Part shown: positions 3,822 to 59,712 of the stretch, one piece after another
How positions within the stretch are numbered: the stretch's first letter is position 1
Layout of the letters: the number at the start of each line of letters is the position of its first letter
From: Armatimonadota bacterium
Lineage (GTDB): Bacteria > Armatimonadota > Zipacnadia > Zipacnadales > VGFC01
Assembly: GCA_016869045.1 (NCBI GenBank)
Contig: VGFC01000001.1
Location: 34,518 to 98,517, forward strand
Reading direction: 5' to 3'
DNA length: 64,000 nucleotides
Made by a program: the position numbers and the translations under genes
Notes under the pieces: generated by a model
Database searches by the model: none
The model's input: only the letters and a program-made list of their open reading frames with translations
Told to the model about the DNA's origin: nothing

Positions 3822-6173
3822 TTGCGCATCGTCCTTAGCCTCGCTCTGGTCGCCGTTGTCCCCGCCGTCTGCGGCGCGGCCCCCTCCACCATCGTCCGCT
3901 TCGACTTCGAGGAGCCGACAACCGACTGGTTTGTCTCGGAGAACGACCCGAACACCTCCGGCGTCGCCGTCGTCCCGATGGCGGCTCCGAGCGGCCAGCA
4001 GGCGCTCGGGCTGACCGGCACCTTCCCGGGGTCGCTCGGCGTCAGTTACACCCCCTGGCAGGACTGGCGGCCATTCACCACGCTGAAAGTGTGGGTTCAG
4101 GTTCCCAAGGGCGCGCCCAAGGACATCGGAATCTACGCCTACCTCAAGGACCGCCAGTACCTCTGGTACCAGACCGGCCTCTTCCGCGATCCCGCGACTG
4201 ACAAGCCAACTCAGCCCCTCAAGCCCGGCGTGTGGATGTCCACCACCGTCGATCTGTCGCCCGGGTCCAAGGCCTGGAAGGCTGGCGGGCACGAGAAGTC
4301 CTGGTACCGTACCCTCTTCTACCCCCGCGAGTTTGGGATCCGCTTCTTCTCCAAGACCGCCTGGCAGGGCACCGTCTACATCGACGACATCTGCCTGATC
4401 GCTCCCGGAACGCCTCCCAAGCCGCCTACGCTTGCCGCGCTGAAGCCCACGGCCAGCGCGCAGAGCGTGGCGGTGAATGAGAAGCTCGAACTGACCTTCC
4501 CGGTGGACCGGGAGTATGACAACGTCTTCAACCCGCACGAAGTGGACGTGATGGGCCACTTCCGCAGACCCTCCGGCGCCCAGATGGAGGTGCCCGGCTT
4601 CTTCTATCAGGACTATCGGCGCACCCAGGATGAGAAGGGTTTCGAGAAGTTGATCCCCGTCGGCGCGCCAACGTGGAAGGTGCGCTTCGCGGCCGTCGAA
4701 CCCGGCAAGCACGAGTACTACGTCACGCTGAAGGACAATCGTGGCGAGGCGCGGTCACCCGCCGCGACCTTCACGGCCACACCCTCCGCCGACCCGCGGG
4801 GGCGCGTGCGCGTGAGCAAGCAGGACCCACGCTACTTCGAGTTCGAGGATGGCAGCTTCTTCTACCCGCAGGGCATCAACATGCGGGACGGCGGCAACCA
4901 GGCGGCGCAGCAGAAGGGCACCTACGACTTCGACACGTTCTTCCCGGCCTTTCAACAGGCGGGCCTGCAGTATGTACGGACGTGGATGTGCGCCTGGTGG
5001 GCGGGCATCGAGTGGACGGACAAGTACGACTCTCGCTACGACAACCTTGGCCGCTACTGCATGTACAACGCCTGGCGGATGGACCACGCGCTCGACCTGG
5101 CCGAACAGGACGACCTGTTCATCGAGCTGACCCTGAACTCCCACGGTCAGCTTCGCCGCGACAAGTTCGATGCCGAGTGGGAGTACAACCCCTACGCGGC
5201 GGCCAACGGCGGTCCGTGTGCAACGCCGTCGCTGATCTGGACCAATCCGACCGCCAAGGAGATGTTCCGGCGCCGGTACCGCTACATCGTCGCGCGTTGG
5301 GGTTACAGTCAACACATCATGTCATGGGACTTGTGGAACGAGATTGACCTGATCGATGCGTACGGGCAGCTCAGTCCCGACGTCGCCGCGTGGCATGCCG
5401 AGATGTCGAAGTACCTGCGCGACATCGACCCCTGGGAGCGCCTGATCACTACACACTACTGCTTGCACTTCATGTGGGATGCGGGCCGGTCCCTCTGGGC
5501 GGTGCCGGACATCGACTACCTGCAGGCCGACGCCTACTGGCCCCAGAAGGAGATCGGCGACGACGTCAGCCGCGCCTACGGGTTGCGGGCGGACATCGCC
5601 AAGCCCTACATGCTGATCGAGTTCGGGCCCCAGACGTCGCAGATCCCCAGCCTCAGCCGCAGCCAGATCGAGGGCTACTTCCGCATCGGCCTGTGGACGA
5701 GCGCAGTCACGCCGATGGCCGCCCCTGCCCACTTCTGGTACAACGACATCTGGCTGCGCGACAGCTACGCGCACCACCATGCGACACTCGCGAAGTTCCT
5801 GGGCAACGAGGACCGGCGCGGTGAGGGTTGGACGTGGATCAACCCCGACCCCAAGCAGAACGCCGCTGCGCCCACTACCTCGCCGCCCGAGCTGTTCGTT
5901 CACGCGATGAAGTCGCCGAAAGCCACGTACTTCTACGTGCTCAATCTCGACCGCATGCTCGCGGGGGAGGTCGGCCGCAAGCTTCCGCCCATTCAGGGCG
6001 CGGCCGTCAGCTTCCAGGGCCTCCCGGACGGCCAGTACGAGGTCGAGTTCTGGGACCCCTACGTGGGCGAGATCGTGGCGACCGCCATTGTCGCGGTCCA
6101 AGGCGGCCGCATCCAGGTCCCCCTCCCCGACTTCCTCTCCGACCTCGCCTGCAAGCTGCGCCTCACCGCCTAG
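3822..6173 (+). CDS. secreted glycoside hydrolase, clan GH-A (GH5-like catalytic domain after an N-terminal beta-sandwich domain)
   Basis: TTG start with GGTGAGG upstream. Signal peptide MRIVLSLALVAVVPAVCGAAP. The WDLWNEIDL motif (NE acid/base) is characteristic of GH5-type TIM-barrel hydrolases. Confidence 0.55.
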   Translation: MRIVLSLALVAVVPAVCGAAPSTIVRFDFEEPTTDWFVSENDPNTSGVAVVPMAAPSGQQALGLTGTFPGSLGVSYTPWQDWRPFTTLKVWVQVPKGAPKDIGIYAYLKDRQYLWYQTGLFRDPATDKPTQPLKPGVWMSTTVDLSPGSKAWKAGGHEKSWYRTLFYPREFGIRFFSKTAWQGTVYIDDICLIAPGTPPKPPTLAALKPTASAQSVAVNEKLELTFPVDREYDNVFNPHEVDVMGHFRRPSGAQMEVPGFFYQDYRRTQDEKGFEKLIPVGAPTWKVRFAAVEPGKHEYYVTLKDNRGEARSPAATFTATPSADPRGRVRVSKQDPRYFEFEDGSFFYPQGINMRDGGNQAAQQKGTYDFDTFFPAFQQAGLQYVRTWMCAWWAGIEWTDKYDSRYDNLGRYCMYNAWRMDHALDLAEQDDLFIELTLNSHGQLRRDKFDAEWEYNPYAAANGGPCATPSLIWTNPTAKEMFRRRYRYIVARWGYSQHIMSWDLWNEIDLIDAYGQLSPDVAAWHAEMSKYLRDIDPWERLITTHYCLHFMWDAGRSLWAVPDIDYLQADAYWPQKEIGDDVSRAYGLRADIAKPYMLIEFGPQTSQIPSLSRSQIEGYFRIGLWTSAVTPMAAPAHFWYNDIWLRDSYAHHHATLAKFLGNEDRRGEGWTWINPDPKQNAAAPTTSPPELFVHAMKSPKATYFYVLNLDRMLAGEVGRKLPPIQGAAVSFQGLPDGQYEVEFWDPYVGEIVATAIVAVQGGRIQVPLPDFLSDLACKLRLTA

Positions 6174-31604: not shown

Positions 31605-33794
31605 ATGCACGTCGTGGCTGTCCTCTCAGTCGCGTTCCCGCTGCTTGGCCACGCTCAGGAGAGCGACGTGCGGGGGCGGCTCGGCCGGCTCACGAAGGCC
31701 GTCGAGCGGATCGAGTCCAGTGCCGCCGACCGCGATTCGGACGTGTACCGCTCGAACATCCCGCTCGCGCGCTTCAAGTTGCGGAAGGCCCTCGCGCAGT
31801 GGCGCGCGCCGTTCGAGGGGGAGGTCGAGGCCCGAGACACCCTCGACGAGGCTGCGGAGGCCCTGGACCGCCACGACGCCGGCAAGGTGGCGTTTGAGGG
31901 CGAGACGGGCCATCTCGAACGCGCCTACTTCGCTCAGAACGACGATACGGCGCAACCGTACTTCGTCTACGTCCCCGAGGACTATCAGCCGAAGCAGCGT
32001 TGGCCGTTGATCGTCTTCCTCCACGGCTACGTGCCTTACACCAGCATCATCGACCCGTGGGTGCTGTACGAGGAGCACGAGCGGATCGCGGCGGACGCGG
32101 GGGCCCTGCTCTTGACGCCGTACGGGCGCCGGAACACGGACTTCCAGGGCGTGGGCGAGGTCGATGTCCTGGCCGCCATCGAGGAGACGAAGCGGTTCTA
32201 CTCGGTCGATCCGGACCGAATCTACCTGTGCGGGCCGTCGATGGGCGGCTACGGGACGTGGACCATCGCGCTGCGCTACCCCGGCATGTTCGCGGCGTGC
32301 GCGCCGATGTGCGGGCAGACGGACATGTTCGTGTGGTGGCCGTGGCCGCACCTCACCGCGCCGAAGTGCAAGCAGTTCCTCGGCGAGTGGGATAACCCCA
32401 TCGACCTCGCGCCCAATGCCGTCGGGCAGCGCTGCTTCCTGCAACACGGGGAGTTCGACCGCCTGATCCCCATCGAGCAGTCGCATATGATGCGCTGGGA
32501 GATGGACCGGCTGGGGACGCCGATCGAGTACTACGAGCACAAGGACGCGGACCACTTCATCTACCAGCACGAGCTGTGCTTCCAGAAGGCCTTCCCGTGG
32601 CTCGTTCAGCACAAGCTCGATCGCTGGCCGAAGCACGTGCGCCTGAAGAGCTACACGTACCGCTACGACACCGCGTTCTGGCTCCGGATTCTCGAGTACC
32701 AGCGGTGGAGCCAACCGGGCCAGATCGAGGCGACCGTCGAGGGCAACCGGATCAGTCTGACGAGCCAGAACGTGGCGCAGGTGCGGCTGTCGCTCTCGAA
32801 GGAGCTGCTGGACGTCGGCCAGCCGGTCACGGTCGTGTGCGGCGGCAAGGAGGTGTTCAGCGGGGTGCCCAAGGGCGAGGCGATTACGGTGAAGCTCGCC
32901 GAGCCGCTCACCCCGGAGAAGCCGGGCGCGATCCGCAAGCGGAAGGGCCTGTGCGGGCCGCTGGAGGATGTGCTCAACGGGCCGTTCGTCGTCGTGCCGG
33001 GCACCGCGGGCTCACAGGACCAGACGCAGGAACTGACGGACCGCGCGACCAAGTGGTGCGCGGAGTGGGACGCCTTCGCGGACGGCATCCCGCCTGTCAT
33101 GCTCGACACTGACGTCGATGAGAAGACCATCGCCGAGCGCAACCTCGTGCTGTTCGGCACGCCGGAGACGAACCAGGTCATCGCGGACATCGCCGACCGG
33201 CTGCCTGTGAAGATCGCGGAGGATGGCTACACTCTCGGCGGTCACACCTACACCGGCCCCGACCTCGGGCTGGCCCTCTGCTACCCGAATCCGAAGAACC
33301 CTGAGCGTTACGTTCTCATCTACGCCGGCGAAGACCCGGGCACCAACCTGGGGATCAACCACAAGCACGACCTGCTGCCCGACTACTTCATCTTCCGCGC
33401 GGGCGAGAAGAACGGCTACGACGACACTTACCCCCACCTGTGTGCCGGCTTCTTCGATCTCAACTGGGAGTTCGACCCGACGCTGATGGACGCCGAAGCC
33501 GCCCCTGCCGACCCCTACTTCGGCTCGGCGACCCTGGTCCGCGATGCCACGCTCACCCAGCCCGTGGCGAAGGTCACCAACGGCTACGCCGACCCGCTCC
33601 GCGTGACCATCGATCGCGGCGAGGAGGCAGTCATCCAGCCGGGCGAGTCCATCGAGCGGAGCCTCGAACCGGGACGGCACCTGTTCACGGGCGTCTGCCC
33701 GGACGGTGTCACACGCACCGAACAGCGGCTGATGGTACCGGAGTTCCGATACGAGTGGAGGGTCCCGGCGCTGTTCCCGGCGGGGTGGCCGTAA
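31605..33794 (+). CDS. secreted alpha/beta-hydrolase (S9 prolyl-oligopeptidase/esterase-like)
   Basis: ATG with GGAGGTG upstream. Signal peptide MHVVAVLSVAFPLLGHAQ. Nucleophile elbow LCGPSMGGYG (GxSxG). Confidence 0.6.
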   Translation: MHVVAVLSVAFPLLGHAQESDVRGRLGRLTKAVERIESSAADRDSDVYRSNIPLARFKLRKALAQWRAPFEGEVEARDTLDEAAEALDRHDAGKVAFEGETGHLERAYFAQNDDTAQPYFVYVPEDYQPKQRWPLIVFLHGYVPYTSIIDPWVLYEEHERIAADAGALLLTPYGRRNTDFQGVGEVDVLAAIEETKRFYSVDPDRIYLCGPSMGGYGTWTIALRYPGMFAACAPMCGQTDMFVWWPWPHLTAPKCKQFLGEWDNPIDLAPNAVGQRCFLQHGEFDRLIPIEQSHMMRWEMDRLGTPIEYYEHKDADHFIYQHELCFQKAFPWLVQHKLDRWPKHVRLKSYTYRYDTAFWLRILEYQRWSQPGQIEATVEGNRISLTSQNVAQVRLSLSKELLDVGQPVTVVCGGKEVFSGVPKGEAITVKLAEPLTPEKPGAIRKRKGLCGPLEDVLNGPFVVVPGTAGSQDQTQELTDRATKWCAEWDAFADGIPPVMLDTDVDEKTIAERNLVLFGTPETNQVIADIADRLPVKIAEDGYTLGGHTYTGPDLGLALCYPNPKNPERYVLIYAGEDPGTNLGINHKHDLLPDYFIFRAGEKNGYDDTYPHLCAGFFDLNWEFDPTLMDAEAAPADPYFGSATLVRDATLTQPVAKVTNGYADPLRVTIDRGEEAVIQPGESIERSLEPGRHLFTGVCPDGVTRTEQRLMVPEFRYEWRVPALFPAGWP

Positions 33795-33855
33795 GGCAAC
33801 GAAAACGGGAAGAGATTCGAGGACCAGAAGAACGACGAAGACGGCAACGGCCCCT
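33793..33855 (+). repeat. solo copy of the aaggcaacgaaa-gggaaga-attcgaag...gaagacgg repeat family (left boundary of lower-GC island)
   Basis: aaggcaacgaaaacgggaagagattcgaggaccagaagaacgacgaagacggcaacgg is ~80% identical to the repeat at 56271-56345 that flanks GxxExxY gene #2. Confidence 0.65.
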
Positions 33856-34066
33856 GAATCTGTGTAAGCCTCTCGTTTGTAGCAGGCGTATTCCCCAGTG
33901 ACTGCAGACACCATCGAGTTCGGTCGTGATGGCATCGTGAGCGATGACCGCGTTGGCCCCGTTCACCGCGAGACGGTGCACCTCGTGGACAGGGAATCCA
34001 CACCGGATGTACTTGCCGGGATCAGGCACAGGACGCCCTTCCGGGCCGCAGTGCCCAACGACGCCC

Positions 34067-35004
34067 TCAGCACTCGCGGTAGATGCTGATCAGGTTCATG
34101 GACATGCAGGGGTACTTGACCCCACTCGTCATTCGACGGATCGCGTCTATGGCGAACACAAGCTGCTCCAACCGGTCCTCCATCTCGTTGCCCGTGGTGA
34201 AGGCGGCGAACCCCTCCTCGCTGGGCTCCGGCCGGGCGACGTTCACCTGACCGACCACAGTCCAGGCGCCGCCCAGATCAAGGCCGTGGCTCTGCTGAAC
34301 CGCCCAGAGGCCGTCCTGGAAGTTCGCTCTGAGAGCCACGCCCGCGAACGTGTTCTGCGGGGTGTCCGGGGACGGCCGAACCTTGACCCGCACGGTGTCA
34401 CTGAAGCTCCGCTCGATGAACTGGGCCATCGCATCGACCTGCTTCGGTCCGAACCCACCCAGGTCGAGCTTCGCGTGTTGCTGCTGTTTGCCTTTGCCAC
34501 CTTCGCTCGGGCCTTGGCTTGCGGCCTTGACGAGTTGGTTGATCACGTCGATGAACTTCGGCAGTTCCCGCGCGGTATCCACGATGAGCTTGTAGTCGAT
34601 GATCCGAACGTCCCCACACACCCGCACCACCTCACCGTCTCTGAGCACGGTCGGCGACCACGCCTTGTCGGCAACGCGGCGTCCACAAACCGTAGCCGGT
34701 CCGACTCGGCCAGGTGCTTCTCGAACAGCGTGTAGGCGTGGTGATGCAGGCTCCTCGTCTCGTCCTGGCTCCTGAAGTACCGGTAGTCTGCCCCCGCCTT
34801 CCCCTTGAGGAGAAACGGCAGGGAGCCCTCTATGCCGCCCTCGACCGACACATCAGCTCCGCTTCCCTTGTGAAGCGTTTCTGGCACTCCCTCCAGGAGC
34901 TGGGCTATGAATGAGCGGACCCGCTCCATGTCCAGGTAGAGGAAGTCCCGAAGCAGCTTCGGTTTGTCGGTCATCGTTGCGTCACCACCTAAGGAGCCAA
35001 GCAC
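34067..35004 (-). pseudogene. unrecognised protein, apparently frameshifted (track ORFs 34543..35004 and 34067..34648), downstream partner of the TIR-like gene
   Basis: N-terminal frame MTDKPKLLRDFLYLDMERVRSFIAQLLEG... runs into an Arg/Ser/Cys-rich junk tail. Protein-like sequence resumes in the +1 frame at VLRDGEVVRVCGDVRIIDYKLIVD... Lower GC (~55%). Confidence 0.45.
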
Positions 35005-35115
35005 TCCATCAGCGACGCGCCGCGGTGCCTAGACAGCCTCGTCATTGGCCGGGCCCGTCAGGCCCAACCCAGTGGAGAGGGAGGTCAAACCCGACGTGCC
35101 TGCCGGGACGAGTAC

Positions 35116-35967
35116 TCACGTCAGGTTGTGTCCATACGCAGCCTTGATCTCCGCCTCGATCTCCAGGTACCTGTCCCGCACGGAGGTCCCGAACTCATGC
35201 CACCCGATGCCCAGTAGGTCAGTGGGTACAGCCGTCCCCCTCCTATAGAGCACGCAGGTGCGGCTTCGTCCGAGTTTGCCATAGAACCAACCGACCTCGA
35301 ACAGCACGTTGGGCCGCATCTGCCTGTAACTGGCGTCCGCCGTCTCCACGCTATCGTCTGGCGTCCAGATCGCGAAGGCGTACCCGCATCCGCCACCGAC
35401 CTGCTCGAGCTTCTCGATCAAGGTCCTCCCCTGATGTGCTTCCCGATCCAGGAGCACAGGCGTCAGCGAACCGAAGCGCTCGCCGATCAGCTCCTTCAGC
35501 TCCAGAGCTGCCGTTCGGTCGTGACCATGGACGATGAAGACCCCCGTCGAGGGAGCCGTGGTTGCTGCGCTGGCGGTTGGCACGCTCTGGGCCACCTCTG
35601 GGACGAGGTCCAGTCTGCTCCTGATGGACTCCAGTTCCCGGATGTTCTCGCGAAGCCCACGCACCAGTAGGGCAGCCTCGGCCGCCACGGACGGGATCCC
35701 GCTGACAGCGACCCCCCCGAAGCCGACTCCCGCGTAAACCCGGTACACTTCGTCGGTCGTGTATAGCTCTCGGAGTAGGTCGTAGTTGTACTCATTCCAT
35801 GTCCGGCGTTCGGCCTCCACAGCATCCAAGTCCGCATTGCTGCGTATAGCTTCTGCCCGGCTCGCGATCTCCTGCCCGCACTCGATCCGGGCCGTCAGCT
35901 TCTGCTGCGCATCTTCCCGGCTGCACGTCAGCCGTGGTCTCTCCGGCGGCGTCTTGGGCTTCGGCAT
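35116..35967 (-). CDS. protein with C-terminal TIR-like nucleotide-binding domain (COG4271/PF10137-type) and unrecognised ~145-aa N-terminal domain
   Basis: C-terminus VFIVHGHDRTAALELKELIGERFG...GRTLIEKLEQ...YAFAIWTPDD...RQMRPNVLFEVGWFYGKLGRSRTCVLYRRGTAVPTDLLGIGWHEF matches the family consensus VFIVHGHD...RaRQNVifElGyFiGkLGReRV...PSDl.G. GGAGG RBS upstream. Confidence 0.65.
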   Translation of the reverse strand: MPKPKTPPERPRLTCSREDAQQKLTARIECGQEIASRAEAIRSNADLDAVEAERRTWNEYNYDLLRELYTTDEVYRVYAGVGFGGVAVSGIPSVAAEAALLVRGLRENIRELESIRSRLDLVPEVAQSVPTASAATTAPSTGVFIVHGHDRTAALELKELIGERFGSLTPVLLDREAHQGRTLIEKLEQVGGGCGYAFAIWTPDDSVETADASYRQMRPNVLFEVGWFYGKLGRSRTCVLYRRGTAVPTDLLGIGWHEFGTSVRDRYLEIEAEIKAAYGHNLT

Positions 35968-36107
35968 GTGTTCCTACACCTCCCCCCTGGCGTAGCCATC
36001 AACCAGGGCCGGATGCACTCCATAGGACCGACTCCCCCCTGCCGGAGCGGCGTCGTCGCTCCCTTGGCCGGCGACCCCCCACGCGAACCGCCGCGACGCA
36101 GCGCGGT

Positions 36108-36749
36108 CTACCCTTCGCTGATCCGCGCCTGGAACTGGGCCATCTTGGCTTCGAGGCGGGATTGCTGGAGGGCGTTGGTGACGTCGCCGCGGGTGCGCTC
36201 GACGAGGCCGCGGGCGGCGTCGGTGCGGCGGCGGAGGCCGAGGCTGACGGCCTCGGGGTAATCGAAGGTCATCAGGAGGGCGTACATCTCATCCATCTCG
36301 TCGAGGACCGCCCCGGCGCGCTCGGGCTCGCCGATGCGGATCAGGTCCAGCACGTGGCGGCGCATTTCTCCGATTGCCTCCGCCAGTCCGTTGAGGTATG
36401 TCGCAGGTGAGACGCCGATCTCCTCGGGCGTCGGCAGACGCTCGCCCTGGAGGATGCGCAAGGTCTGGTGCGCCTCGGCGTACTCCTTGAGGGCGTCGGT
36501 AACGAAGCCTGCGAACCACAGCGAGGGCGACGCCTGCATGCGCTCGTTCATCTCGCGGACCGCCTCGCCCATCTCCGCCAGCAAGTTGTGCGCCTCGTCG
36601 TACTCGCTCCGGTGCGCGTGCTTGATGATCGTGGCCGCCGTGCGAATGACCTGCCGCGAGAACTCCAAAGCTCCCTCCCGGTGCGCGTCCTCGCGGTCGA
36701 GGAACTCGCGCGCGGTGGCGGCCACGGCCTCAAGCTCTGGGCGGTTCAT
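36108..36749 (-). CDS. translin-family protein (tentative)
   Basis: YLNGLAEAIGEMRRHVLD resembles the translin EYL.GL.D..GEL.R motif. All-helical ~213-aa protein. Host-like GC. Confidence 0.4.
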   Translation of the reverse strand: MNRPELEAVAATAREFLDREDAHREGALEFSRQVIRTAATIIKHAHRSEYDEAHNLLAEMGEAVREMNERMQASPSLWFAGFVTDALKEYAEAHQTLRILQGERLPTPEEIGVSPATYLNGLAEAIGEMRRHVLDLIRIGEPERAGAVLDEMDEMYALLMTFDYPEAVSLGLRRRTDAARGLVERTRGDVTNALQQSRLEAKMAQFQARISEG

Positions 36750-52243: not shown

Positions 52244-52621
52244 GTGCCCGCGCATGTTGAGCGCGCCGCCTCCACCGTGGTGGACGCCGCCATCGCCGTG
52301 CACCGAGCCCTCGGCCCAGGGCTGCTGGAGTCACTCTACGAGAGGTGCCTCGCCTATGAGCTGAGCAAGCGGGGGCTCGAGGTGAGGACGCAGGTGGCGC
52401 TGCCGGTCGTGTATGACGGGGTCACGTTCGACGATGGCCTGCGCCTGGACATCCTGGTCGAGGACTGCCTGGTCGTGGAGGTGAAGGCCGTGGAGGCGCT
52501 GCAGCCCATTCATGAGGCGCAGCTGTTGACCTACCTGAAGCTCCTGGCCATGCCTTTGGGTTTCCTGCTCAACTTCAACGTCACTCGCATGAAGCTCGGT
52601 ATCAGGCGTTTCCGGCGGTAG
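52244..52621 (+). CDS. GxxExxY-family small protein (PD-(D/E)XK-like, tentative), paralog 1
   Basis: GPGLLESLYERCLAYEL carries the GxxExxY signature. About 125 aa. 61% identical over most of its length to the ORF at 56387-56795. Confidence 0.6.
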   Translation: MPAHVERAASTVVDAAIAVHRALGPGLLESLYERCLAYELSKRGLEVRTQVALPVVYDGVTFDDGLRLDILVEDCLVVEVKAVEALQPIHEAQLLTYLKLLAMPLGFLLNFNVTRMKLGIRRFRR

Positions 52622-52733: not shown

Positions 52734-53756
52734 ATGAGCAAGCCCAAGGTGTTGTACGTGCCGACGGACGGACACACGAAGCGCGTGTTCCGCGACGAGA
52801 CGTTCGCGCGGATGTGCGAGCAGTTCGAGGTGACGGTCAACGACACCGGCGCGGAGCTGGACCCCGATGAGGTCGCGGCGTGGGTCACGGGCTGCGACGG
52901 GCTGGTGACCGGCTGGGGCTCGCGGGCGCTATCGGAGGCCGTGTTCACCCAGGCGCCTGACCTGAAGATCATCGCGCACTCCGCGGGCTCCGTGAAGTTC
53001 CTGGTTACCCGCGAGATGATCGACGAGTACCTCCTCCCGCGGGGGATCGTGCTGTTCAGCGCGAACGTGGCCATCGCGCTCAACGTGGCGGAAGCCGCCG
53101 TCGGGATGCTGATCATGGCGTCCCGCCGCTGGGTCGATCACAACGCCCACTACCACCAGACCGGCCAGTGGCGCTCGTCGGACATCCCGATCAACGGTCA
53201 GTACCTCCGCGGCTGCAAGCTCGGGCTGATCTCCGCCAGCGCCGTCGCGCGTGAAGTGATCCGCCTGCTGCAGAACTGGGACATCGAGCTCCTGGTCTAT
53301 GATCCGTACCTCTCCGAGGAGGCCGCAGCGAAGCTGGGCGTGCGCAAGGTGGGGCTGAACCAACTCTTCGAGGAGGCGGACCACGTCTCGGTACACGCGC
53401 CGAAGCTGCCCGAGACCGACAAGCTCATCGGCCGCGAGCAGCTTCGCCTGCTGAAGGACGGGGCGGCGTTCGTGAACACCGCGCGCGGCTCGGTGATCGA
53501 CGAACAGGCCCTCATCGAGGAGGCCCAAACGGGCCGCATCTTCGTGGCCCTGGATGTGACCGAGCCCGAGCCTCCGGCCCCGGACCATCCGTTCCAGCAC
53601 ATGCCGAACGTCTACATCTCGCCCCATACGGCCGGCGCTGGGTACTTCGGCTACTTCGGGATCGGGGAGACGACGGTGCAGGCTCTCGAGGATGCGTTCG
53701 CCGGGCGGCCGGTCGAAGGCGCGGCGCCGCTGGAGCGGTGGGAACAACTGGCGTAG
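52734..53756 (+). CDS. D-isomer-specific 2-hydroxyacid dehydrogenase family protein
   Basis: AAGGAG RBS. NAD-binding and catalytic blocks (ARG...RGSVIDEQAL, ...SPHTAG). Confidence 0.75.
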   Translation: MSKPKVLYVPTDGHTKRVFRDETFARMCEQFEVTVNDTGAELDPDEVAAWVTGCDGLVTGWGSRALSEAVFTQAPDLKIIAHSAGSVKFLVTREMIDEYLLPRGIVLFSANVAIALNVAEAAVGMLIMASRRWVDHNAHYHQTGQWRSSDIPINGQYLRGCKLGLISASAVAREVIRLLQNWDIELLVYDPYLSEEAAAKLGVRKVGLNQLFEEADHVSVHAPKLPETDKLIGREQLRLLKDGAAFVNTARGSVIDEQALIEEAQTGRIFVALDVTEPEPPAPDHPFQHMPNVYISPHTAGAGYFGYFGIGETTVQALEDAFAGRPVEGAAPLERWEQLA

Positions 53757-53770
53757 GGACGGCGACGATA

Positions 53771-53807
53771 GGGGAAGATTCGAAGACTTGAAGAACGGCG
53801 AAGACGG
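53771..53807 (+). repeat. solo copy of ggggaagattcgaagacttgaagaacggcgaagacgg repeat
   Basis: Identical to the 56290-56326 copy. Lies between the 2-HADH stop and the transporter start. Confidence 0.85.
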
Positions 53808-53810
53808 AGC

Positions 53811-56270
53811 ATGAGAACGACCGCGGCGATGCCGCTCCTCATCCTGCCCCTCCTGCCCACATGCGGTAGAGCGCAACTGCCGACCGCGGGCCCGGTCGCT
53901 GTTGAGATTCCCATCTTCGAGGGCGGGGAGGGGATGGACTTCTTCTTCCAGGCGGCCCGCGCCTACGAGAAGGCGGCCCCGGAGGTCACCGTCGATCTCT
54001 ACGGCGACCCGCGCATCGCCGACAAGGTGCGCGTGCGCGTTCTGGAGGGCACGTTCCCCGACATCACCAACGCAGGCCTGAATTACTGGGCGCTCATCAA
54101 GACCGGGGACGTGATGCCGCTCGACGAGTTCCTGAAGCAACCGAACTGGGAGAAGGACTCCACCTGGCGCGACTCGTTCATGCCCGGCGCGCTGGACCGC
54201 TACACCTGGCAGGGCCACACGTACGGCATCCCGTTCCTCTACTCGATCTACGCCATCTGGTACAACAAGACGATGTTCGAGGAGCAGGGCTGGACGCCGC
54301 CGGAGACCTGGGACGAGTTCCTGGCGCTGTGCAAGAAGATCAAGGACGCGAAGATCCCCAGCGGCTACTACAACTTCGAGTACTTCAACAAGAGCGAGAC
54401 ACCGCGGCCCAAGACGCTGCTGGAGTACAACGGTCTCAACGACACGTACAAGGGCCTGCCGGACGACGCGGCGACGCAGGTGTACCCGCTGTCATTCCAG
54501 GGCCAGTACCACGGCTACGCACAGGGCCTGATCGACTCGGCCTTCTATTACCAGGCCGGTAGAGACCGGTATCTTGCGCAGAAGAACATCGAGCCCGGCA
54601 GCTTCGACAACCCGGAACTCATCAAGAGCCTCGGCCTCGTGCAGGAGCTCGCCACGCAGTACTTCGAGCCCGGCTGCATGGGGCACAGCCACACGATGGC
54701 GCAGGAGCGGTTCTTCAACGGGAAGACCGCGATGATCCCCTGCGGCTCGTGGCTGAAGAGCGAGATGCTCGGGAAGATCCCCGACGGCTTCCGGCTGGGG
54801 GCCTTCAACCTGCCACGCCTGCCGGGCAAGGGCGACCCCACAGCCGTCTACACCTCCACGAGCTACTACTTCTCGTTCCGCAAGGCCCAGCATCCCAGAG
54901 AGGGCCTCGAGTTCCTGCGCTTCATGACCTCGCGCGCGCAGGCCGGCAAGTTCTGCAAGATGCGCGACATCATCGCGGCCGTGAAGGGCTCCGCCGAGGG
55001 CAACGTTACCACTGACATGCTCGATGTGCTCGCGATCGCGAACAAGGCGCGCACGAGCTACGGCGCCGCCCCCGGCGAGGGCTTCCCCGAGTTCGATCAG
55101 TACTGGACCGACGCCCGGTTTGGGATCCTCACCGGGAAGCTGACGCCCGAACAGGCGGCGAAGAACCTGGAGGCGGGCGCCCAGCAGGTCCGGGCCCGCG
55201 CCAAGAACCCCGACCAGATCACCGTGCGACATCGCGTGGAGCCCGGCATCCTTCTGGGCCTGCTGAGTCTGGCAGTGGTCTACACCCTCATGACGACGGT
55301 CCGCCGCTGGATCATCGCGCGGCGCGAGACGCGGGGGAGCATCGAGGCCAAGCGCGTCGGGTTGAGTTCGCTTTCCATCCTCATCTTCGTCGGGCCGGCC
55401 GCGCTGCTGTATACGGTGTTCGTGGTGATCCCCAGCGCCCGGTCCTTCTGGTGGAGCACCCAGCGGTGGGACGGGCTGACCAACATGCAGTACGTCGGCC
55501 TGCAGCACTTCAAGCGGCTGTTGTTCGAGAGCGACCCCTTCTGGACCGCGCTCAAGAACAACCTCTTCATCATGCTCGTCATCCCGCTGTTCGTCATCCC
55601 GCTATCGCTGTTCCTGGCGACCTGCATCAGCCGCGGGCTGAAGGGATCAACCGTCTTCCGGATCGTCTTCTTCTTCCCGAACATCCTCGGCGCCGTGGCG
55701 GCCACGCTCCTCTGGATGCACCTGTATGAGCCGAACGGCGGGCTGGTGAACCGGGTGCTGGTCTTCCTGACCGGCCTGCTGCACCTGGGGCCAGCGCTCA
55801 AACTGATCGGTGTCCAGTCCTTCCAGGGGTTCGCGTGGCTGAGCCAGGAGCACCTGTACTGGGCCCTCATCCCGATGTCGATCTGGGGCGCCTGCGGCTT
55901 CAACATGCTGCTGTACCTCGCGGCGATGGAGGGCATCCCGCATGACCTCTATGAGGCCGCCCAGATCGACGGCGCTTCAGCCTGGCGGCAGTTCTGGACG
56001 ATCACCCTCCCGCTCATCTGGGACGTGCTCTCGATCTCCATCGTCTTCATGATCATCGGCGGCATGAAGGCCTTCGAGACCATCTGGCTGCTCACCAACC
56101 AGACCCCCACCACCGAAACGCATGTCATCGGCACCCGCATGGTGCAGGCGATGTTCACCGAGTTCAAGGTCGGCGAGGCGACCGCCATCGCCGTCCTGCT
56201 CTTCCTGATGGTCTTCTTCGGCACCGCCGCGACGCTGAGGCTGATGCGGAGGGAGACGGTAGAATACTGA
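53811..56270 (+). CDS. sugar ABC transporter: family-1 extracellular solute-binding protein fused in one ORF to a MalF/UgpA-type permease
   Basis: N-terminal ~410 aa is SBP-like with a signal peptide. The C-terminal ~400 aa has 6 TMs and the EAAQIDGAS permease signature. No stop between them in this sequence. Confidence 0.6.
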   Translation: MRTTAAMPLLILPLLPTCGRAQLPTAGPVAVEIPIFEGGEGMDFFFQAARAYEKAAPEVTVDLYGDPRIADKVRVRVLEGTFPDITNAGLNYWALIKTGDVMPLDEFLKQPNWEKDSTWRDSFMPGALDRYTWQGHTYGIPFLYSIYAIWYNKTMFEEQGWTPPETWDEFLALCKKIKDAKIPSGYYNFEYFNKSETPRPKTLLEYNGLNDTYKGLPDDAATQVYPLSFQGQYHGYAQGLIDSAFYYQAGRDRYLAQKNIEPGSFDNPELIKSLGLVQELATQYFEPGCMGHSHTMAQERFFNGKTAMIPCGSWLKSEMLGKIPDGFRLGAFNLPRLPGKGDPTAVYTSTSYYFSFRKAQHPREGLEFLRFMTSRAQAGKFCKMRDIIAAVKGSAEGNVTTDMLDVLAIANKARTSYGAAPGEGFPEFDQYWTDARFGILTGKLTPEQAAKNLEAGAQQVRARAKNPDQITVRHRVEPGILLGLLSLAVVYTLMTTVRRWIIARRETRGSIEAKRVGLSSLSILIFVGPAALLYTVFVVIPSARSFWWSTQRWDGLTNMQYVGLQHFKRLLFESDPFWTALKNNLFIMLVIPLFVIPLSLFLATCISRGLKGSTVFRIVFFFPNILGAVAATLLWMHLYEPNGGLVNRVLVFLTGLLHLGPALKLIGVQSFQGFAWLSQEHLYWALIPMSIWGACGFNMLLYLAAMEGIPHDLYEAAQIDGASAWRQFWTITLPLIWDVLSISIVFMIIGGMKAFETIWLLTNQTPTTETHVIGTRMVQAMFTEFKVGEATAIAVLLFLMVFFGTAATLRLMRRETVEY

Positions 56271-56289
56271 GGGAGGGAAGGCAACGAAA

Positions 56290-56326
56290 GGGGAAGATTC
56301 GAAGACTTGAAGAACGGCGAAGACGG
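56290..56326 (+). repeat. left inverted repeat flanking GxxExxY gene #2
   Basis: ggggaagattcgaagacttgaagaacggcgaagacgg. The reverse-complement variant lies at 56841-56880. Confidence 0.85.
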
Positions 56327-56386
56327 CCAGGCAAGGGGTACGGCAACGGCCAAGGCCGAGGCCACGGCAGCAGGCGAGGCGCGGCG

Positions 56387-56795
56387 TGTGGGGCCACGGC
56401 TGGCCGATGAGGTCGAGCGGATCGGCGCCCAGGTTGTGGACGCGGCCTACACCGTACACCAGGCGCTGGGGCCGGGGCTGTTGGAGTCTGTGTATGAGGC
56501 CTGCCTCGCCCACGAACTGGGGAAGCGTGGACTGACAGTGCGCACGCAGGTTCCCATGCCGGTAACCTATGATGGGGCGCGGTTCGAGGCGGGCTTCCGC
56601 CTGGACATGCTCGTGGAAGAGCAAATGGTGGTTGAGGTCAAGGCTGTCGAGGCCATCCTCGGAGTGCACATTGCGCAGTTGCGCACGTATCTGAAGCTCT
56701 CGGGGCTTCAGCTCGGGTTCCTGATGAACTTCAACGTGGCGCTGTTCAGAACGGGGATCAGGAGGGTGACCGTGGGCGCAAGTGTCCGCGCCTAG
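56387..56795 (+). CDS. GxxExxY-family small protein, paralog 2, inserted between the two ABC permease genes
   Basis: GTG start. GPGLLESVYEACLAHEL signature. Shares the C-terminal block AQLRTYLKLSGLQLGFLMNFNV with paralog 1. Confidence 0.6.
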
Positions 56796-56840
56796 CCCTG
56801 CGCCGTTGCCTTGGTCGTCACCATGGCCTTGCCTTGCCGT

Positions 56841-56880
56841 GTCGTCTTCGCCGTTCTTCGAATCTTCGAATCTTCCCCTT
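56841..56880 (-). repeat. right inverted repeat flanking GxxExxY gene #2
   Basis: gtcgtcttcgccgttcttcgaatcttcgaatcttcccc is the reverse complement of the 56290-56326 family, with one unit variant. Confidence 0.8.
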
Positions 56881-56898
56881 TCGTGGGGGAGGTGGCCA

Positions 56899-57750
56899 AT
56901 GCAGAAGCGATTCTCGATATGGGACCCGTTGATCTACCTGGTCCTGCTGACCTACTTCCTGGTCGTCGTGTACCCGATGGTGTGGCTGCTATACACTTCG
57001 CTGAAGACGGACAAGGCCATCTTCCTCAACCCGTTTGAGCTACCGCCTTTGCGCCATCTGCAATGGGCGAACTTCGCCAACGCCTGGACGAAGGGGAACT
57101 TCGGGGACTACTTCTTCAACAGCGTCGCCATGACCGTGATGACGGTCGGGCTGGTGGTGCTGCTCTCGTCGATGGCGGCCTACGCGCTGAGCCGCTTCCA
57201 CTTCCGCGGGGCGCGGCCGCTGTTCTTCTACTTCCTGGCGGGGCTGATGATCCCGCTGCAGTTGGGGATCGTGCCGCTGTTCTTCCAGATGAAGGACCTG
57301 CACCTGTTGAACTCGCGGTGGGGCCTGCTGACGGCCTACGTCGCGTTTGGGATGCCCTTCTCGATCTTCATCCTGACGGGCTTCTTCAAGTCGCTCCCGT
57401 CGGCGCTCTACGAGTCCGCGCTCATCGACGGCGCCAGCGACTTCCGCGCGTTCTGGTCGATCATGCTACCGCTCGCGCGGCCGGGCCTCATCACGGTGGC
57501 GATCTTCTCGTTCCTGGGCACCTGGAACGAGTTCTTCATGGCCTTCATGTTCCTCTCCGGCAAGGGGTCCGAGCACCTGCGCACGCTGCCTCTGGGCCTC
57601 GCCAACCTCACCATCGTGAGCCAGTACCGGTCCGACTGGGGCATGGCCTTCGCGGGGCTGGTGCTGGTCATGCTCCCCACGCTACTTGTCTACTCCCTCC
57701 TGCAGAAGCACCTCAGCAAGGGAATCACCATGGGCGCGCTGAAGGGGTAG
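56899..57750 (+). CDS. sugar ABC transporter permease (MalG/UgpE-type)
   Basis: GGGGGAGG RBS. ESALIDGASDFRAFWSIMLPL EAA-loop signature. 6 TMs. Confidence 0.8.
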   Translation: MQKRFSIWDPLIYLVLLTYFLVVVYPMVWLLYTSLKTDKAIFLNPFELPPLRHLQWANFANAWTKGNFGDYFFNSVAMTVMTVGLVVLLSSMAAYALSRFHFRGARPLFFYFLAGLMIPLQLGIVPLFFQMKDLHLLNSRWGLLTAYVAFGMPFSIFILTGFFKSLPSALYESALIDGASDFRAFWSIMLPLARPGLITVAIFSFLGTWNEFFMAFMFLSGKGSEHLRTLPLGLANLTIVSQYRSDWGMAFAGLVLVMLPTLLVYSLLQKHLSKGITMGALKG

Positions 57751-57768
57751 TCTCCCGGAGGGCGACCC

Positions 57769-59712
57769 ATGCTGATCTCGATCCTTCTCTCTGCGACTAC
57801 CGTCAATGCTGCCGGGCCGGATGACCCCTCACCGTTCGGCATCGTGTGCCCGTGGCCGAAGGTCGGCGAGACGGGCGCGCGATGGGTGCGGTGCGGCGCG
57901 GGGGCGACGCAGCTTGTGGACTGGGGCGCCGTCGAGCCCGAGGCGGGCAGGTTTGTCTGGGACGGTGCGGACAGCGAGTTGGTGAAGTGGGACAAGCCGG
58001 AGGGCCTGACGCCGCTGCCGATTCTGGCCTATACCGCGCCGTGGGCGTCGAGCGGACTGGATGGTGACCGCGCGTGTCCGCCGCGCGACCTGCGGGACTA
58101 CGCGCGGTTCGTGCGGGAGAGCGTGGCGCGGTACAAGGGCGACATTCGCTACTGGGAGGTCTGGAACGAGGAGAACATCGAGTTCTTCAAGGGCACGATC
58201 CCCCAGTACGTGGACATGCTGAAGATCGCCTCGATTGCGGCGCGGCAGGCCGACCCCGAGGCGCGGGTCGTCTTCGGTGGGACGGCGGGCGTGGATTCGC
58301 GGTTCATCGAGCGCTGCTACGAACTGGGAACGGGTCCGTACTTCGACGTGATGGCGGTGCACCCGTACCAGTGGGGGCGCACGTTCAACGACGGCTGGAA
58401 CCGCGACAAGATGACGCGGCTACGGTCCGTCATGGACCGATTCGGCGGCGCGCGGGTGCCGATCTGGTGCACGGAAATCGGCTGGTCCACGGGTGAGGGC
58501 GTCAGCAACGAGGACCAGGCGCGGCTGCTCGTGCAGGCGTTCGTCGGCAACCTCGCGCTGAAGGACCTGGGCATCGCGAAGGTCTTCTGGTTCTGCGTGA
58601 AGGACTGGGGCGGTCCGGGGCACGGCATCTTCGCGGACGACGGCTCGCGCAAGCCGGCCTTCGAGGCCTACCGCATCGTGACGCGCGAACTCGAGGGCAC
58701 GGTGCCCGTGGGGCGCCTGGACACCGGGGACGTCCGGTGCCATGCGTTCTGCGACCTGGATGGGCAGCGCGCGGTCTTGGTCTTCTGGTCGCCGACGCTG
58801 GAGCCGATGCCGCTGGCGCTGCCGAAGCTGGGGGGTGAGTTCACCGTCGTTGACCTCAACGGACGCGAACAGCGCCTGACCGGCGAGCAGCTTCCCCAGC
58901 TCACCGCGACCCCGGAGCCGAGTTACCTGCGGCTGCCGCCGGAGGCACTCGCTGCTTTGCTGCCCGCTGACGCAACCCTCCGCCCAGCAGCGTACTGGTC
59001 GCCGCCGGACCGACCGGCGACGCCGCCGTGGTGGCCGTCGGTGCAGATTCCGGAGGGCACGTCGCGGTTGTGTTTCGTCCTCGGCGAGACGCGCGAGGTG
59101 AGCGTGGATCTGTGGAACCTGGGGGCTGAACCGCAACAGGCGACGGTCACGGTGTCACTGCTCGGCGAACAGGACCGTGTGCTGGCGGCGGATGACCGGC
59201 GTTGCCCTCTGCCGGCAGATGCCTGTACACCGGCACTCCTCAGCCTCGCAGTTCCGCCCGGTCTGGCGCCCGGACTGACCCCGATGGTCGTCTCCCTCCG
59301 AACCGAGGCAGACCCTCGCCCTATCGAGTACCGGCTCGCGGTCCGCGTCGCCCAGGGCCCGACCATCGAGTTCCTCGCCAACAGCCACGTCGAGCGGTCG
59401 GTCTATCTGCAGCCCGGCCACGAGAGCGGCTGCTCGGAGTCGTGCCGCTTCGGCAAGACGTGGACCTACGCCTTCGATGTGCCGTTCGCGTGCGAGGCGG
59501 AGCTGCAGATGCTGCTCGGCGCGCACTTGGCAGGACCGTTCGCGGTGCGCTACTCGCAGGACGGCAACGAGTGGAAGACGCTGCTCGACGGTCGCGGCGA
59601 CCGCGCGTGGCGCCAGGCGACCCTCACCAACCTGCAGCCGGGCAAGCTCTACCTGCGCTTCGCGGGCGAGAACGTGCAGCTCGATGAGTTGGTGCTAACG
59701 TGGGTGCGGTGA
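57769..59712 (+). CDS. secreted glycoside hydrolase, clan GH-A (GH5/GH39-like) with C-terminal beta-sandwich domain
   Basis: Signal peptide. Catalytic-pair motifs YWEVWNEEN (acid/base) and IWCTEIGWST (nucleophile). Confidence 0.55.
   Translation: MLISILLSATTVNAAGPDDPSPFGIVCPWPKVGETGARWVRCGAGATQLVDWGAVEPEAGRFVWDGADSELVKWDKPEGLTPLPILAYTAPWASSGLDGDRACPPRDLRDYARFVRESVARYKGDIRYWEVWNEENIEFFKGTIPQYVDMLKIASIAARQADPEARVVFGGTAGVDSRFIERCYELGTGPYFDVMAVHPYQWGRTFNDGWNRDKMTRLRSVMDRFGGARVPIWCTEIGWSTGEGVSNEDQARLLVQAFVGNLALKDLGIAKVFWFCVKDWGGPGHGIFADDGSRKPAFEAYRIVTRELEGTVPVGRLDTGDVRCHAFCDLDGQRAVLVFWSPTLEPMPLALPKLGGEFTVVDLNGREQRLTGEQLPQLTATPEPSYLRLPPEALAALLPADATLRPAAYWSPPDRPATPPWWPSVQIPEGTSRLCFVLGETREVSVDLWNLGAEPQQATVTVSLLGEQDRVLAADDRRCPLPADACTPALLSLAVPPGLAPGLTPMVVSLRTEADPRPIEYRLAVRVAQGPTIEFLANSHVERSVYLQPGHESGCSESCRFGKTWTYAFDVPFACEAELQMLLGAHLAGPFAVRYSQDGNEWKTLLDGRGDRAWRQATLTNLQPGKLYLRFAGENVQLDELVLTWVR

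Follow-up and report, generated by a model that had tools for sequence, protein, structure and literature searches.

Do two neighbouring genes on a segment of unusual base composition amount to an undescribed defence system, or did they reach their present site as independent passengers? The question is raised by a 64,000-nucleotide stretch (hereafter the window) of contig VGFC01000001.1 (positions 34,518 to 98,517) from an Armatimonadota bacterium (assembly GCA_016869045.1). Here, a first-pass annotation made from the sequence alone had marked out a low-GC (guanine-plus-cytosine) island with a gene for a TIR-like-domain protein (gene 1) and a second gene on the same strand (gene 2), and had proposed that they form an undescribed two-gene defence module. 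Our comparative analysis points with good probability to another explanation: the island would be an acquired 2.25-kb fragment with two independent single-gene defence cassettes, both from the embedding slot of an Hma-type system. As first put forward, the locus is an ordinary, catalogued single-gene TIR-like candidate beside a dead DolA-like gene; the gene remnants that flank both cassettes, with two arrays behind them, are the newest part of the analysis and the one most worth following up.

The islet and its flanking gene remnants

The features that define the islet, all on the minus strand, are:
33856..36107: apparent inserted foreign segment (the islet), about 2.25 kb, delimited by an empty site in L126 and by GC and GC3
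35994..36107: upstream flank of cassette 1, putatively the last ~40 codons of a PglZ-like (alkaline-phosphatase-like) gene (3' end), broken in frame
35116..35967: gene 1, intact, 283 aa, PDC-S35-type (Pfam, PADLOC, AlphaFold2, Foldseek, homolog alignment)
35066..35110: downstream flank of cassette 1, putatively the decayed start (5' end) of a DUF1156 DNA methyltransferase gene
34974..35066: putative second remnant of a PglZ-like gene 3' end; upstream flank of cassette 2 (profile 15-20.7 bits)
34067..34974: gene 2, apparent DUF6414 (DolA-family) pseudogene with a 1-nt deletion and split frames
33952..34020: putative DUF1156 DNA methyltransferase remnant, the first ~25 codons (PGKYIRCGFPVHEVHRLAVNGAN); downstream flank of cassette 2

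The genes on either side of the islet, one translin-like and the other a hydrolase, are found together in a related contig, L126 (80% and 75% identity, respectively): there they are convergent, separated by a 132-nt spacer, and have no island between them. Homology to this spacer picks up again at window position 33855; the right end of the islet abuts the translin-like stop codon and its left end lies between 33856 and ~33950. The GC fraction of the segment (33795-36107) is 0.638 as against 0.681 for the whole window, making it the second-lowest 2.3-kb stretch therein, and its GC at third codon positions (GC3) is 0.78-0.84 as against 0.91 in the flanking genes. Because the flanking genes sit together without the island in L126, and because GC and GC3 are lower, the islet appears to be horizontally acquired foreign DNA. 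This bears out the earlier delimitation of the region as an island; the GC dip described then is real, but reaches about 64% rather than falling from 68% to 55%. The islet is 100% identical, frame change included, in six assemblies (three Joint Genome Institute samples and three Logan runs). Pfam annotation of its neighbours returned only GH2, S9 hydrolase, translin-like, aconitase and GH9 genes. The window has no tRNA that could have served as insertion target, and no recombinase or integrase was found in its list of open reading frames (ORFs) or among the Pfam-annotated genes ~6 kb to either side.

What links the islet to a source are the short sequences around its two genes. We built gene-end profiles from intact genes only and searched them in six-frame translations of the window and 212 further loci (~2 Mb; loci are designated by L numbers): they score only at the window flanks, at intact genes and at corresponding positions of L016 (15-40 bits; next best <=4.4). 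DNA alignments of the flanks were each tested against 1000 shuffles, and all exceeded 1000 of 1000. Upstream of either gene, the sequence encodes the C-terminus (..KGATKLYKHGGVSLMECIVPWVV) of the PglZ-like gene that precedes DUF6414 genes, the family of gene 2, in L013 and L212. The first (35994-36107) gives profile scores of 16-21.6 bits over a background of at most 4.4 bits and aligns to the gene end in L212 with a score of 78 (shuffle mean 27.7; 0/1000), this alignment beginning at the first base past the translin stop. The second (34974-35066) scores 64 in the same DNA comparison (mean 18.9; 0/1000), its translation reading ..RHRGASLMECLAP*VV versus ..YKHGGVSLMECIVPWVV, and ends in an ATGA stop/start overlap with the DUF6414 start, matching the intact parents.

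The downstream flanks tell of the other gene of the slot. Positions 33952-34020 encode PGKYIRCGFPVHEVHRLAVNGAN, the N-terminal sequence of the DUF1156 methyltransferase found behind DUF6414 in L007, L013 and L212; this flank has a profile match of 24.5-29 bits (independent E-value 1.5e-6), aligns to the methyltransferase 5' end of L212 with a score of 84 (mean 18.9; 0/1000), and is also recovered by tblastn from the methyltransferases of L007, L010, L013 and L014. Its more degraded counterpart behind gene 1 (35066-35110) aligns to the same 5' end with a score of 44 (mean 16.8; 0/1000). The junction between the two cassettes thus consists of the methyltransferase remnant at 35066-35110 followed by the PglZ-like remnant at 34974-35066, with the signature TCCCGGCAAGTACATCGAATATGA, 40-90 nt, then GTCGCTGATGGAGTGC.

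The same methyltransferase-start/phosphatase-end junction recurs in L016, next to P0002, the closest homolog of gene 1 (55% identity). Positions 1-2100 of this locus hold a second orphan two-cassette array, in which the second gene belongs to DUF3800/PDC-M04A, not DUF6414, and the junction is an open 52-aa ORF fusing the methyltransferase N-terminus to the PglZ-like C-terminus. The whole 141-nt gap between genes 1 and 2 aligns to it (43 versus a shuffle mean of 19.6; 0/1000). No promoter or terminator was found between genes 1 and 2, and shuffled sequences fold as stably as the stem-loop in the gap (junction fold z-score -1.1).

The parental arrangement can be read from several loci. Relatives of gene 2 in L013, L212 and L007 sit between Hma-type system genes in the same orientation, of which the window keeps only the flank-gene remnants, and in L013 and L212 the DUF6414 gene is the sole embedded gene of an intact slot. 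The uninterrupted order is seen on a Haloplanus plasmid, with a DUF499 ATPase, an alkaline-phosphatase-like gene and a DNA methyltransferase, and a slot without insert. We assigned the parent to Hma from the best PADLOC match of the L007 methyltransferase, which is HmaB (3.5e-41), and from the DUF499 neighbours. Given the flank remnants, the junction in L016, the uninterrupted order in Haloplanus and the HmaB match, the islet probably consists of two independent cassettes in an array, transplanted from the embedding slot of an Hma-type system without the system itself.

Gene 1 and its TIR-like domain

Gene 1 can be divided as follows (minus strand):
35593-35967 (aa 1-125): N-terminal helical module, predicted by AlphaFold2 as long helices
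aa 122-141: predicted disordered linker
35125-35544 (aa 142-281): TIR-like domain of the Cap12/PycTIR type
35218..35316: predicted NADase residues R218 (35314-35316), N220, E224 (35296-35298) and D250 (35218-35220), from phmmer alignment with 7un8

The C-terminal TIR-like domain named by the first-pass annotation is recovered by Pfam as PF10137 (CAP12-PCTIR_TIR) at 1.2e-28 and 99.9 bits (cut-off 24.7), across aa 143-259 and profile positions 2-117 of 119; the motifs VFIVHGHD and RPNVLFEVGWF are both found in the protein. The AlphaFold2 model has a mean predicted local distance difference test (pLDDT) score of 88.9, and ~90 over aa 142-281. Its top Foldseek matches are the TIR-STING structures 9lmq, 9lmr and 7un8 (E 3e-6 to 2e-4), followed by the TIR domains of SPARTA, MAL and TLR. 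In the phmmer alignment with SfSTING (7un8), RPNVLFE and PTD of gene 1 pair with RDNVVFE and PTD, so that R218, N220, E224 and D250 correspond to SfSTING R78, N80, E84 and D110. In SfSTING, R78 and N80 bind nicotinamide adenine dinucleotide (NAD+), E84 is catalytic and D110 is contributed by the opposing TIR (PMC9402430). In 35 full-length homologs N220, E224 and D250 never vary, and R218 is conserved in at least 90%; the putative catalytic glutamate earlier noted as retained corresponds to E224. By analogy with Cap12 and PycTIR, gene 1 probably acts via NAD+ hydrolysis switched on by TIR-TIR assembly.

The protein as a whole belongs to a catalogued family, and it is not undescribed in this sense. 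Five models of PDC-S35, a PADLOC single-gene candidate derived from a guilt-by-embedding screen whose candidates (PDCs) are mostly unvalidated (bioRxiv 10.1101/2024.01.29.577857), match gene 1 at 9.4e-39 to 5.6e-22, the best of them (PDLC05005; aa 37-277, profile positions 13-253 of 264) covering both domains. Gene 1 aligns end to end with 34 homologs and keeps every family-invariant residue; it shows 31-55% identity to other PDC-S35-type members and is identical in its product to the FJX75_00270 protein of an Armatimonadetes metagenome-assembled genome. The affinity to cyclic-nucleotide systems does not extend beyond the TIR part: the NCBIfam Cap12 equivalog reaches 47.7 bits against a cut-off of 450, and the PADLOC PycTIR model matches only the TIR region (1.2e-9, aa 176-260). 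Pfam annotation of the neighbours agrees with the first-pass annotation that no CD-NTase, cyclase, SIR2/SLOG, STING or SAVED partner lies nearby. Since neither these nor ThsA are found close by, and the Cap12 equivalog is far below threshold, gene 1 is best classed as a new member of the PDC-S35 candidate family and not of CBASS, Pycsar or Thoeris, as had been concluded before from the absence of a partner gene of any of these.

The N-terminal region, earlier called unrecognisable, indeed has no Pfam family match, but most of it is covered by the PDC-S35 model. A profile of this module retrieved 2,517 cluster representatives. Among 79 long representatives, 63 carry PF10137, five TIR_2, two the HEPN-like Hypoth_Ymh domain and one a DpnII-MboI restriction endonuclease domain, with SieB or GGDEF as further domains. 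Because the module is fused elsewhere to other effector domains, we infer that it is a swappable input or assembly module and that gene 1 is a self-contained sensor-effector. PDC-S35-type proteins would thus be modular, joining a widespread unnamed helical N-module to interchangeable effectors, here with a full match to the TIR-STING active site, which makes them good targets for learning how a stand-alone TIR switches on without a nucleotide signal. The best matches of the module profile, P0257 (347 aa) and P0258 (349 aa), have two tandem copies of the module and zero Pfam domains.

Could gene 1 instead be a housekeeping nucleotide-binding protein with no role in defence, whose low GC is incidental? 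The names given in databases ("predicted nucleotide-binding protein" or "hypothetical protein") and the metabolic character of its immediate neighbours in the window are in keeping with this. We consider it highly improbable, however: gene 1 is missing at the orthologous site of the related genome (L126), is flanked by remnants of the embedding slot of a defence system, and has an active site matching those of known NAD+-depleting effectors. Moreover, its relatives occur on prophages, plasmids and 131 IMG/VR contigs, in variable contexts with restriction-modification (R-M), Gabija, PD-Lambda-3 and integrase neighbours, which upholds the defence-type setting earlier expected of the family, rich in defence and mobile genes. 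No neighbour is recurrent: the most widely shared one is found at no more than 4 of 83 loci, and among 125 immediate neighbours each family is represented three times at most, counts that bear on recurrence and yield no clean fraction of defence enrichment. Components of PD-Lambda-3 were seen near PDC-S35-type genes in two unrelated loci, A in L017 (4339-4938) and B in L210 (1055-1891).

Gene 2 and the question of a two-gene system

Gene 2 had been given as one ORF (35004-34067) of no nameable family. It has both a family and a broken frame, its parts (minus strand) being:
34672-34974: N-terminal part
34067-34672: C-terminal part, in a different frame

The span 35004-34067 is 938 nt, which is not divisible by three, and within it two ORFs (34543-35004 and 34067-34648) overlap in different frames, both matching Pfam PF19952 (DUF6414), the family of DolA of the Dodola system, at profile positions 1-89 and 106-246. 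Intact homologs place the frame change at 34672 (tblastn), with a 1-nt deletion at about 34672-34674, and the start at ATG 34974. When the frames are joined at 34672, the resulting 302-aa protein matches PF19952 at 3.3e-18 (66.8 bits versus 25) and, in full-length alignment with 15 intact homologs of ~300 aa, reaches up to 74% identity and keeps 31 of 31 invariant residues. The core of this protein is predicted to be OB-fold-like; searches of the DUF6414 profile against Protein Data Bank sequences gave chance-level matches only.

It is conceivable that gene 2 still functions, either as two separate polypeptides or through programmed frameshifting at 34672, though we rate this as quite improbable. 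Both halves are stop-free apart from the frame change and keep all invariant residues, an identical sequence is fixed in every assembly, and GTG 34648 could initiate the C-terminal part; this intact look is, however, equally expected after a recent mutation. All 15 homologs are single proteins of ~300 aa, and the break falls inside the predicted fold, immediately before the first barrel strand (E116-127). Direct reading of the sequence around the shift (GCG TTG CCG ACA) revealed no X XXY YYZ slippery heptamer. Because the single-base deletion lies in a non-repetitive context (TTG|GCC) without such a heptamer, gene 2 is best read as a recent pseudogene.

Relatives of gene 2 are found beside assorted defence genes: type IIG R-M, GmrSD, a GajB-like helicase, PDC-S02, PDC-S21 (DUF4917) and DUF1156 methyltransferases. 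PADLOC models match neither the gene 2 fragments nor the DUF6414 relatives, and no member of the subfamily was found in viral contigs or plasmids. Gene 2 is apparently a degenerated representative of a DUF6414 subfamily that lacks DolB and whose members seem to reside within R-M and Hma-type loci. In two loci a lone DUF6414 gene directly follows an M78 peptidase gene matching PADLOC capP: L104 (2343-4044; 1e-21) and L105 (1426-3722; 2e-18), the latter with a helix-turn-helix gene as well; the genes after it lie on the opposite strand in both. CapH and CapP are known regulators of immune operons. That the DUF6414 gene is here the sole cargo behind a CapP-type regulator suggests that DUF6414 proteins can act alone. 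A 530-aa variant, in which DUF6414 (aa 238-363 matched) lies behind an extra N-terminal region of ~235 aa, was noticed in L114 (3043-4635) and L115 (1531-3123), with phosphodiesterase-family gene flanks; these contigs share their lake metagenomes of origin (Ga0194111, Ga0194112) with the window.

These results bear directly on whether genes 1 and 2 constitute one obligate defence system of a TIR-like effector and its sensor. In favour of such a pairing, the two genes are on the same strand, 141 nt apart, similar in GC and arrived in one segment, and DUF6414 has a working partner in Dodola. However, the junction between them is made of the remnants of two other genes and in L016 is followed by a different gene; the nearest relatives of both genes have other neighbours; DUF6414 is found alone in the intact slot and behind CapP-type regulators; and gene 2 is frameshifted, but gene 1 is intact. 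Co-occurrence points the same way: no DUF6414 ORF lies within ~6 kb of gene 1 relatives in any of 165 loci (80 genome loci, 80 viral-contig loci and five metagenome contigs), and a gene-1-like ORF is present at none of the 34 DUF6414-relative loci of the first sets. The DUF6414 subfamily is likewise without a recurrent neighbour family. The obligate pair is thus unlikely, and the probable reading of the adjacency as cassette stacking, and not functional partnership, is a part of the overall cassette explanation.

A modified form of the pairing would make DUF6414 a promiscuous OB-fold sensor that works with varied upstream effectors: the TIR-like protein here, the SIR2-like DUF4917 in L011 and L210, and the ClpB-like DolB in Dodola. 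L011, where PDC-S21 is followed by DUF6414, and the tight block of PDC-S35, PDC-S21 and DUF6414 in L210 lend themselves to this form. As for the recurrence of the pair, no adjacent pair was seen elsewhere, and of about 31 DUF6414 loci only L210 has a gene 1 relative as well, with another gene in between; this comes close to the absence of any co-occurrence that the first-pass annotation had named as counting against its proposal. The L210 block has a repeated flank of its own on both sides (1935-1977 and 4983-5024; related site at ~3260-3290 in L011), and a profile search of L210 found no Hma-type flank remnants; these flanks suggest the same kind of duplicated gene-end flank from another parent locus. 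The two copies encode ..PP(I/V)RQ(A/M)IR(G/E)AVE, and the downstream one opens with ATG and resembles the start of the next gene. To see whether the islet descends from an L210-like block, we also searched the gap between genes 1 and 2 by tblastn for the remains of a DUF4917 gene, and found none.

Several points weigh against the account of two independent cassettes with a self-contained gene 1. In L210 a full-length gene 1 relative (41% identity) does lie two genes upstream of a DUF6414 gene (63% identity), within a same-strand block of PD-Lambda-3_B, the gene 1 relative (PDC-S35), PDC-S21 and DUF6414 with gaps of only 22 and 25 nt, and given this block there may be some functional affinity of PDC-S35-type and DUF6414 genes. 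The hidden Markov model used for the DUF6414 co-occurrence counts was built from the present subfamily and could miss very distant DolA relatives. The protein profile of the flank at 35066-35110 is weak (3-9 bits), and the cassette pattern comes from two arrays (the window and L016) and three parental lineages. As regards gene 1, its trigger and the role proposed for its N-module are deduced from domain swapping only, and we found no publication reporting an NADase or anti-phage assay of any PDC-S35 member, just as literature searches on PDC-S35 and COG4271 found nothing.

Known systems, a proposed mechanism and other features of the window

Comparison with described systems places the islet among them only in part. 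PDC-S35: like other members, gene 1 is a single gene apparently derived from an embedded position in a defence system and without recurrent partner, but the window copy lies outside any defence system amid metabolic genes. CBASS Cap12 (TIR-STING, TIR-SAVED) and PycTIR: gene 1 shares the PF10137 subfamily, the fold and the equivalents of the SfSTING active site, but unlike Cap12 it has no fused STING or SAVED and there is no CD-NTase nearby; unlike Pycsar, it has no cyclic nucleotide monophosphate-binding domain and no pyrimidine cyclase nearby, its input being the helical module. Thoeris: neither gene 1 nor the gene 2 fragments have a ThsA or ThsB match in PADLOC, and such Pfam domains are lacking among the neighbours. 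Dodola, which consists of DolA (DUF6414) and the ClpB-like DolB (Millman et al. 2022, summarised in bioRxiv 10.1101/2024.10.26.620412): gene 2 is in the Pfam family of DolA, but it is frameshifted, and no DolB/ClpB-like gene is present in the island or beside any of ~31 subfamily members. Hma systems with embedded defence genes (Payne et al., bioRxiv 10.1101/2024.01.29.577857): the parental context of DUF6414 appears to be of this kind, with a DUF1156 methyltransferase, a DUF499/BrxC-like ATPase and a PglZ-like gene in the same orientation, but the window has lost the surrounding system, with ~25-45 codons of each slot-flanking gene left and the remnants duplicated between cassettes. We found no description of an orphaned stacked array in Payne et al. 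(bioRxiv 10.1101/2024.01.29.577857). Integron arrays: single promoterless-looking genes run head to tail with a recurring composite boundary and a varying second position (window versus L016), but the islet has no integrase, attC-like hairpin or attI, and its boundaries are coding pieces of slot-flanking genes, so that this is a resemblance only.

On the cassette explanation, both cassettes would formerly have occupied the embedding slot of an Hma-type parent with the order DUF499 ATPase, PglZ-like phosphatase, DUF1156 methyltransferase, the slot lying between the last two genes. Cassette 1 would be an intact PDC-S35-type sensor-effector, in which the helical N-module is joined by a flexible linker to a Cap12/PycTIR-type TIR. 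A phage cue acting on the N-module would lead to self-association of the protein; in the ensuing TIR-TIR packing, which would resemble that of TIR-STING filaments, the R218/N220/E224 site of a subunit would be completed by D250 of an adjacent one, and the consequent hydrolysis of NAD+ would leave an infected cell that no longer supports phage growth (abortive infection). Cassette 2 would be a DolA-like DUF6414 gene without a DolB partner, killed by the recent 1-nt deletion.

More tentatively, genes embedded in the PglZ-like/DUF1156 slot of Hma-type systems might in general be discrete, exchangeable cassettes with ends inside the flanking coding sequences: one ~25 codons past the methyltransferase start, the other ~30-45 codons short of the phosphatase stop. 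Through recombination there, cassettes could be stacked into arrays with the composite methyltransferase-5'/phosphatase-3' junction, the second cassette could be exchanged, and entire arrays could move out of the parent system to other places in the genome. If true, cassettes would be traded much as in integrons, though with no integrase involved, and this would give a mechanistic handle on how defence genes become embedded, the why and how of which were left open by the authors describing embedding (bioRxiv 10.1101/2024.01.29.577857). The gene-end remnants would then be molecular fossils of the origin of the cassettes and of their movement as units, and the junction sequence is directly searchable in genome collections.

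Among the surroundings of the islet, the translin-like neighbour (36108-36749, minus strand) is below the Pfam Translin threshold (24.4 versus 25.9 bits), and its matches to the NCBIfam PRK14562 models ("haloacid dehalogenase superfamily protein") likewise fall short of the cut-offs; with more than 2,000 homologs, it belongs to the conserved core genes. On the other side lies a further feature:
33813..33845, plus strand: copy of a dispersed intergenic repeat, 33 nt, native to the 3' flank of the hydrolase gene and outside the island

The first-pass annotation had placed a solo repeat at the left edge of the island. The copy is indeed there, 88% identical to 53776-53807 and 56295-56327 (E 2e-4 within the window), but is not an island feature: as it also adjoins the hydrolase stop codon at the island-less site of L126, it appears to be native sequence, and we ruled it out as the island boundary. 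The repeat is ~50 nt long, intergenic, with GAAGA units every 8-10 nt (GGGGAAGATTCGAAGACTTGAAGAACGGCGAAGACGG), and its copies lie at 53755-53807 (+), 56274-56326 (+), 56843-56884 (-) and 33813-33845 (+) of the window and at 8733-8782 of L126. The window also has two GxxExxY (TIGR04256) genes on the plus strand, at 52244-52621 and 56307-56795 (1.5e-43 and 4.1e-41). Two inverted copies of the repeat flank the second of these, which has ABC-transporter permease genes on both sides; GC is lowest in the window around 55000-57800.

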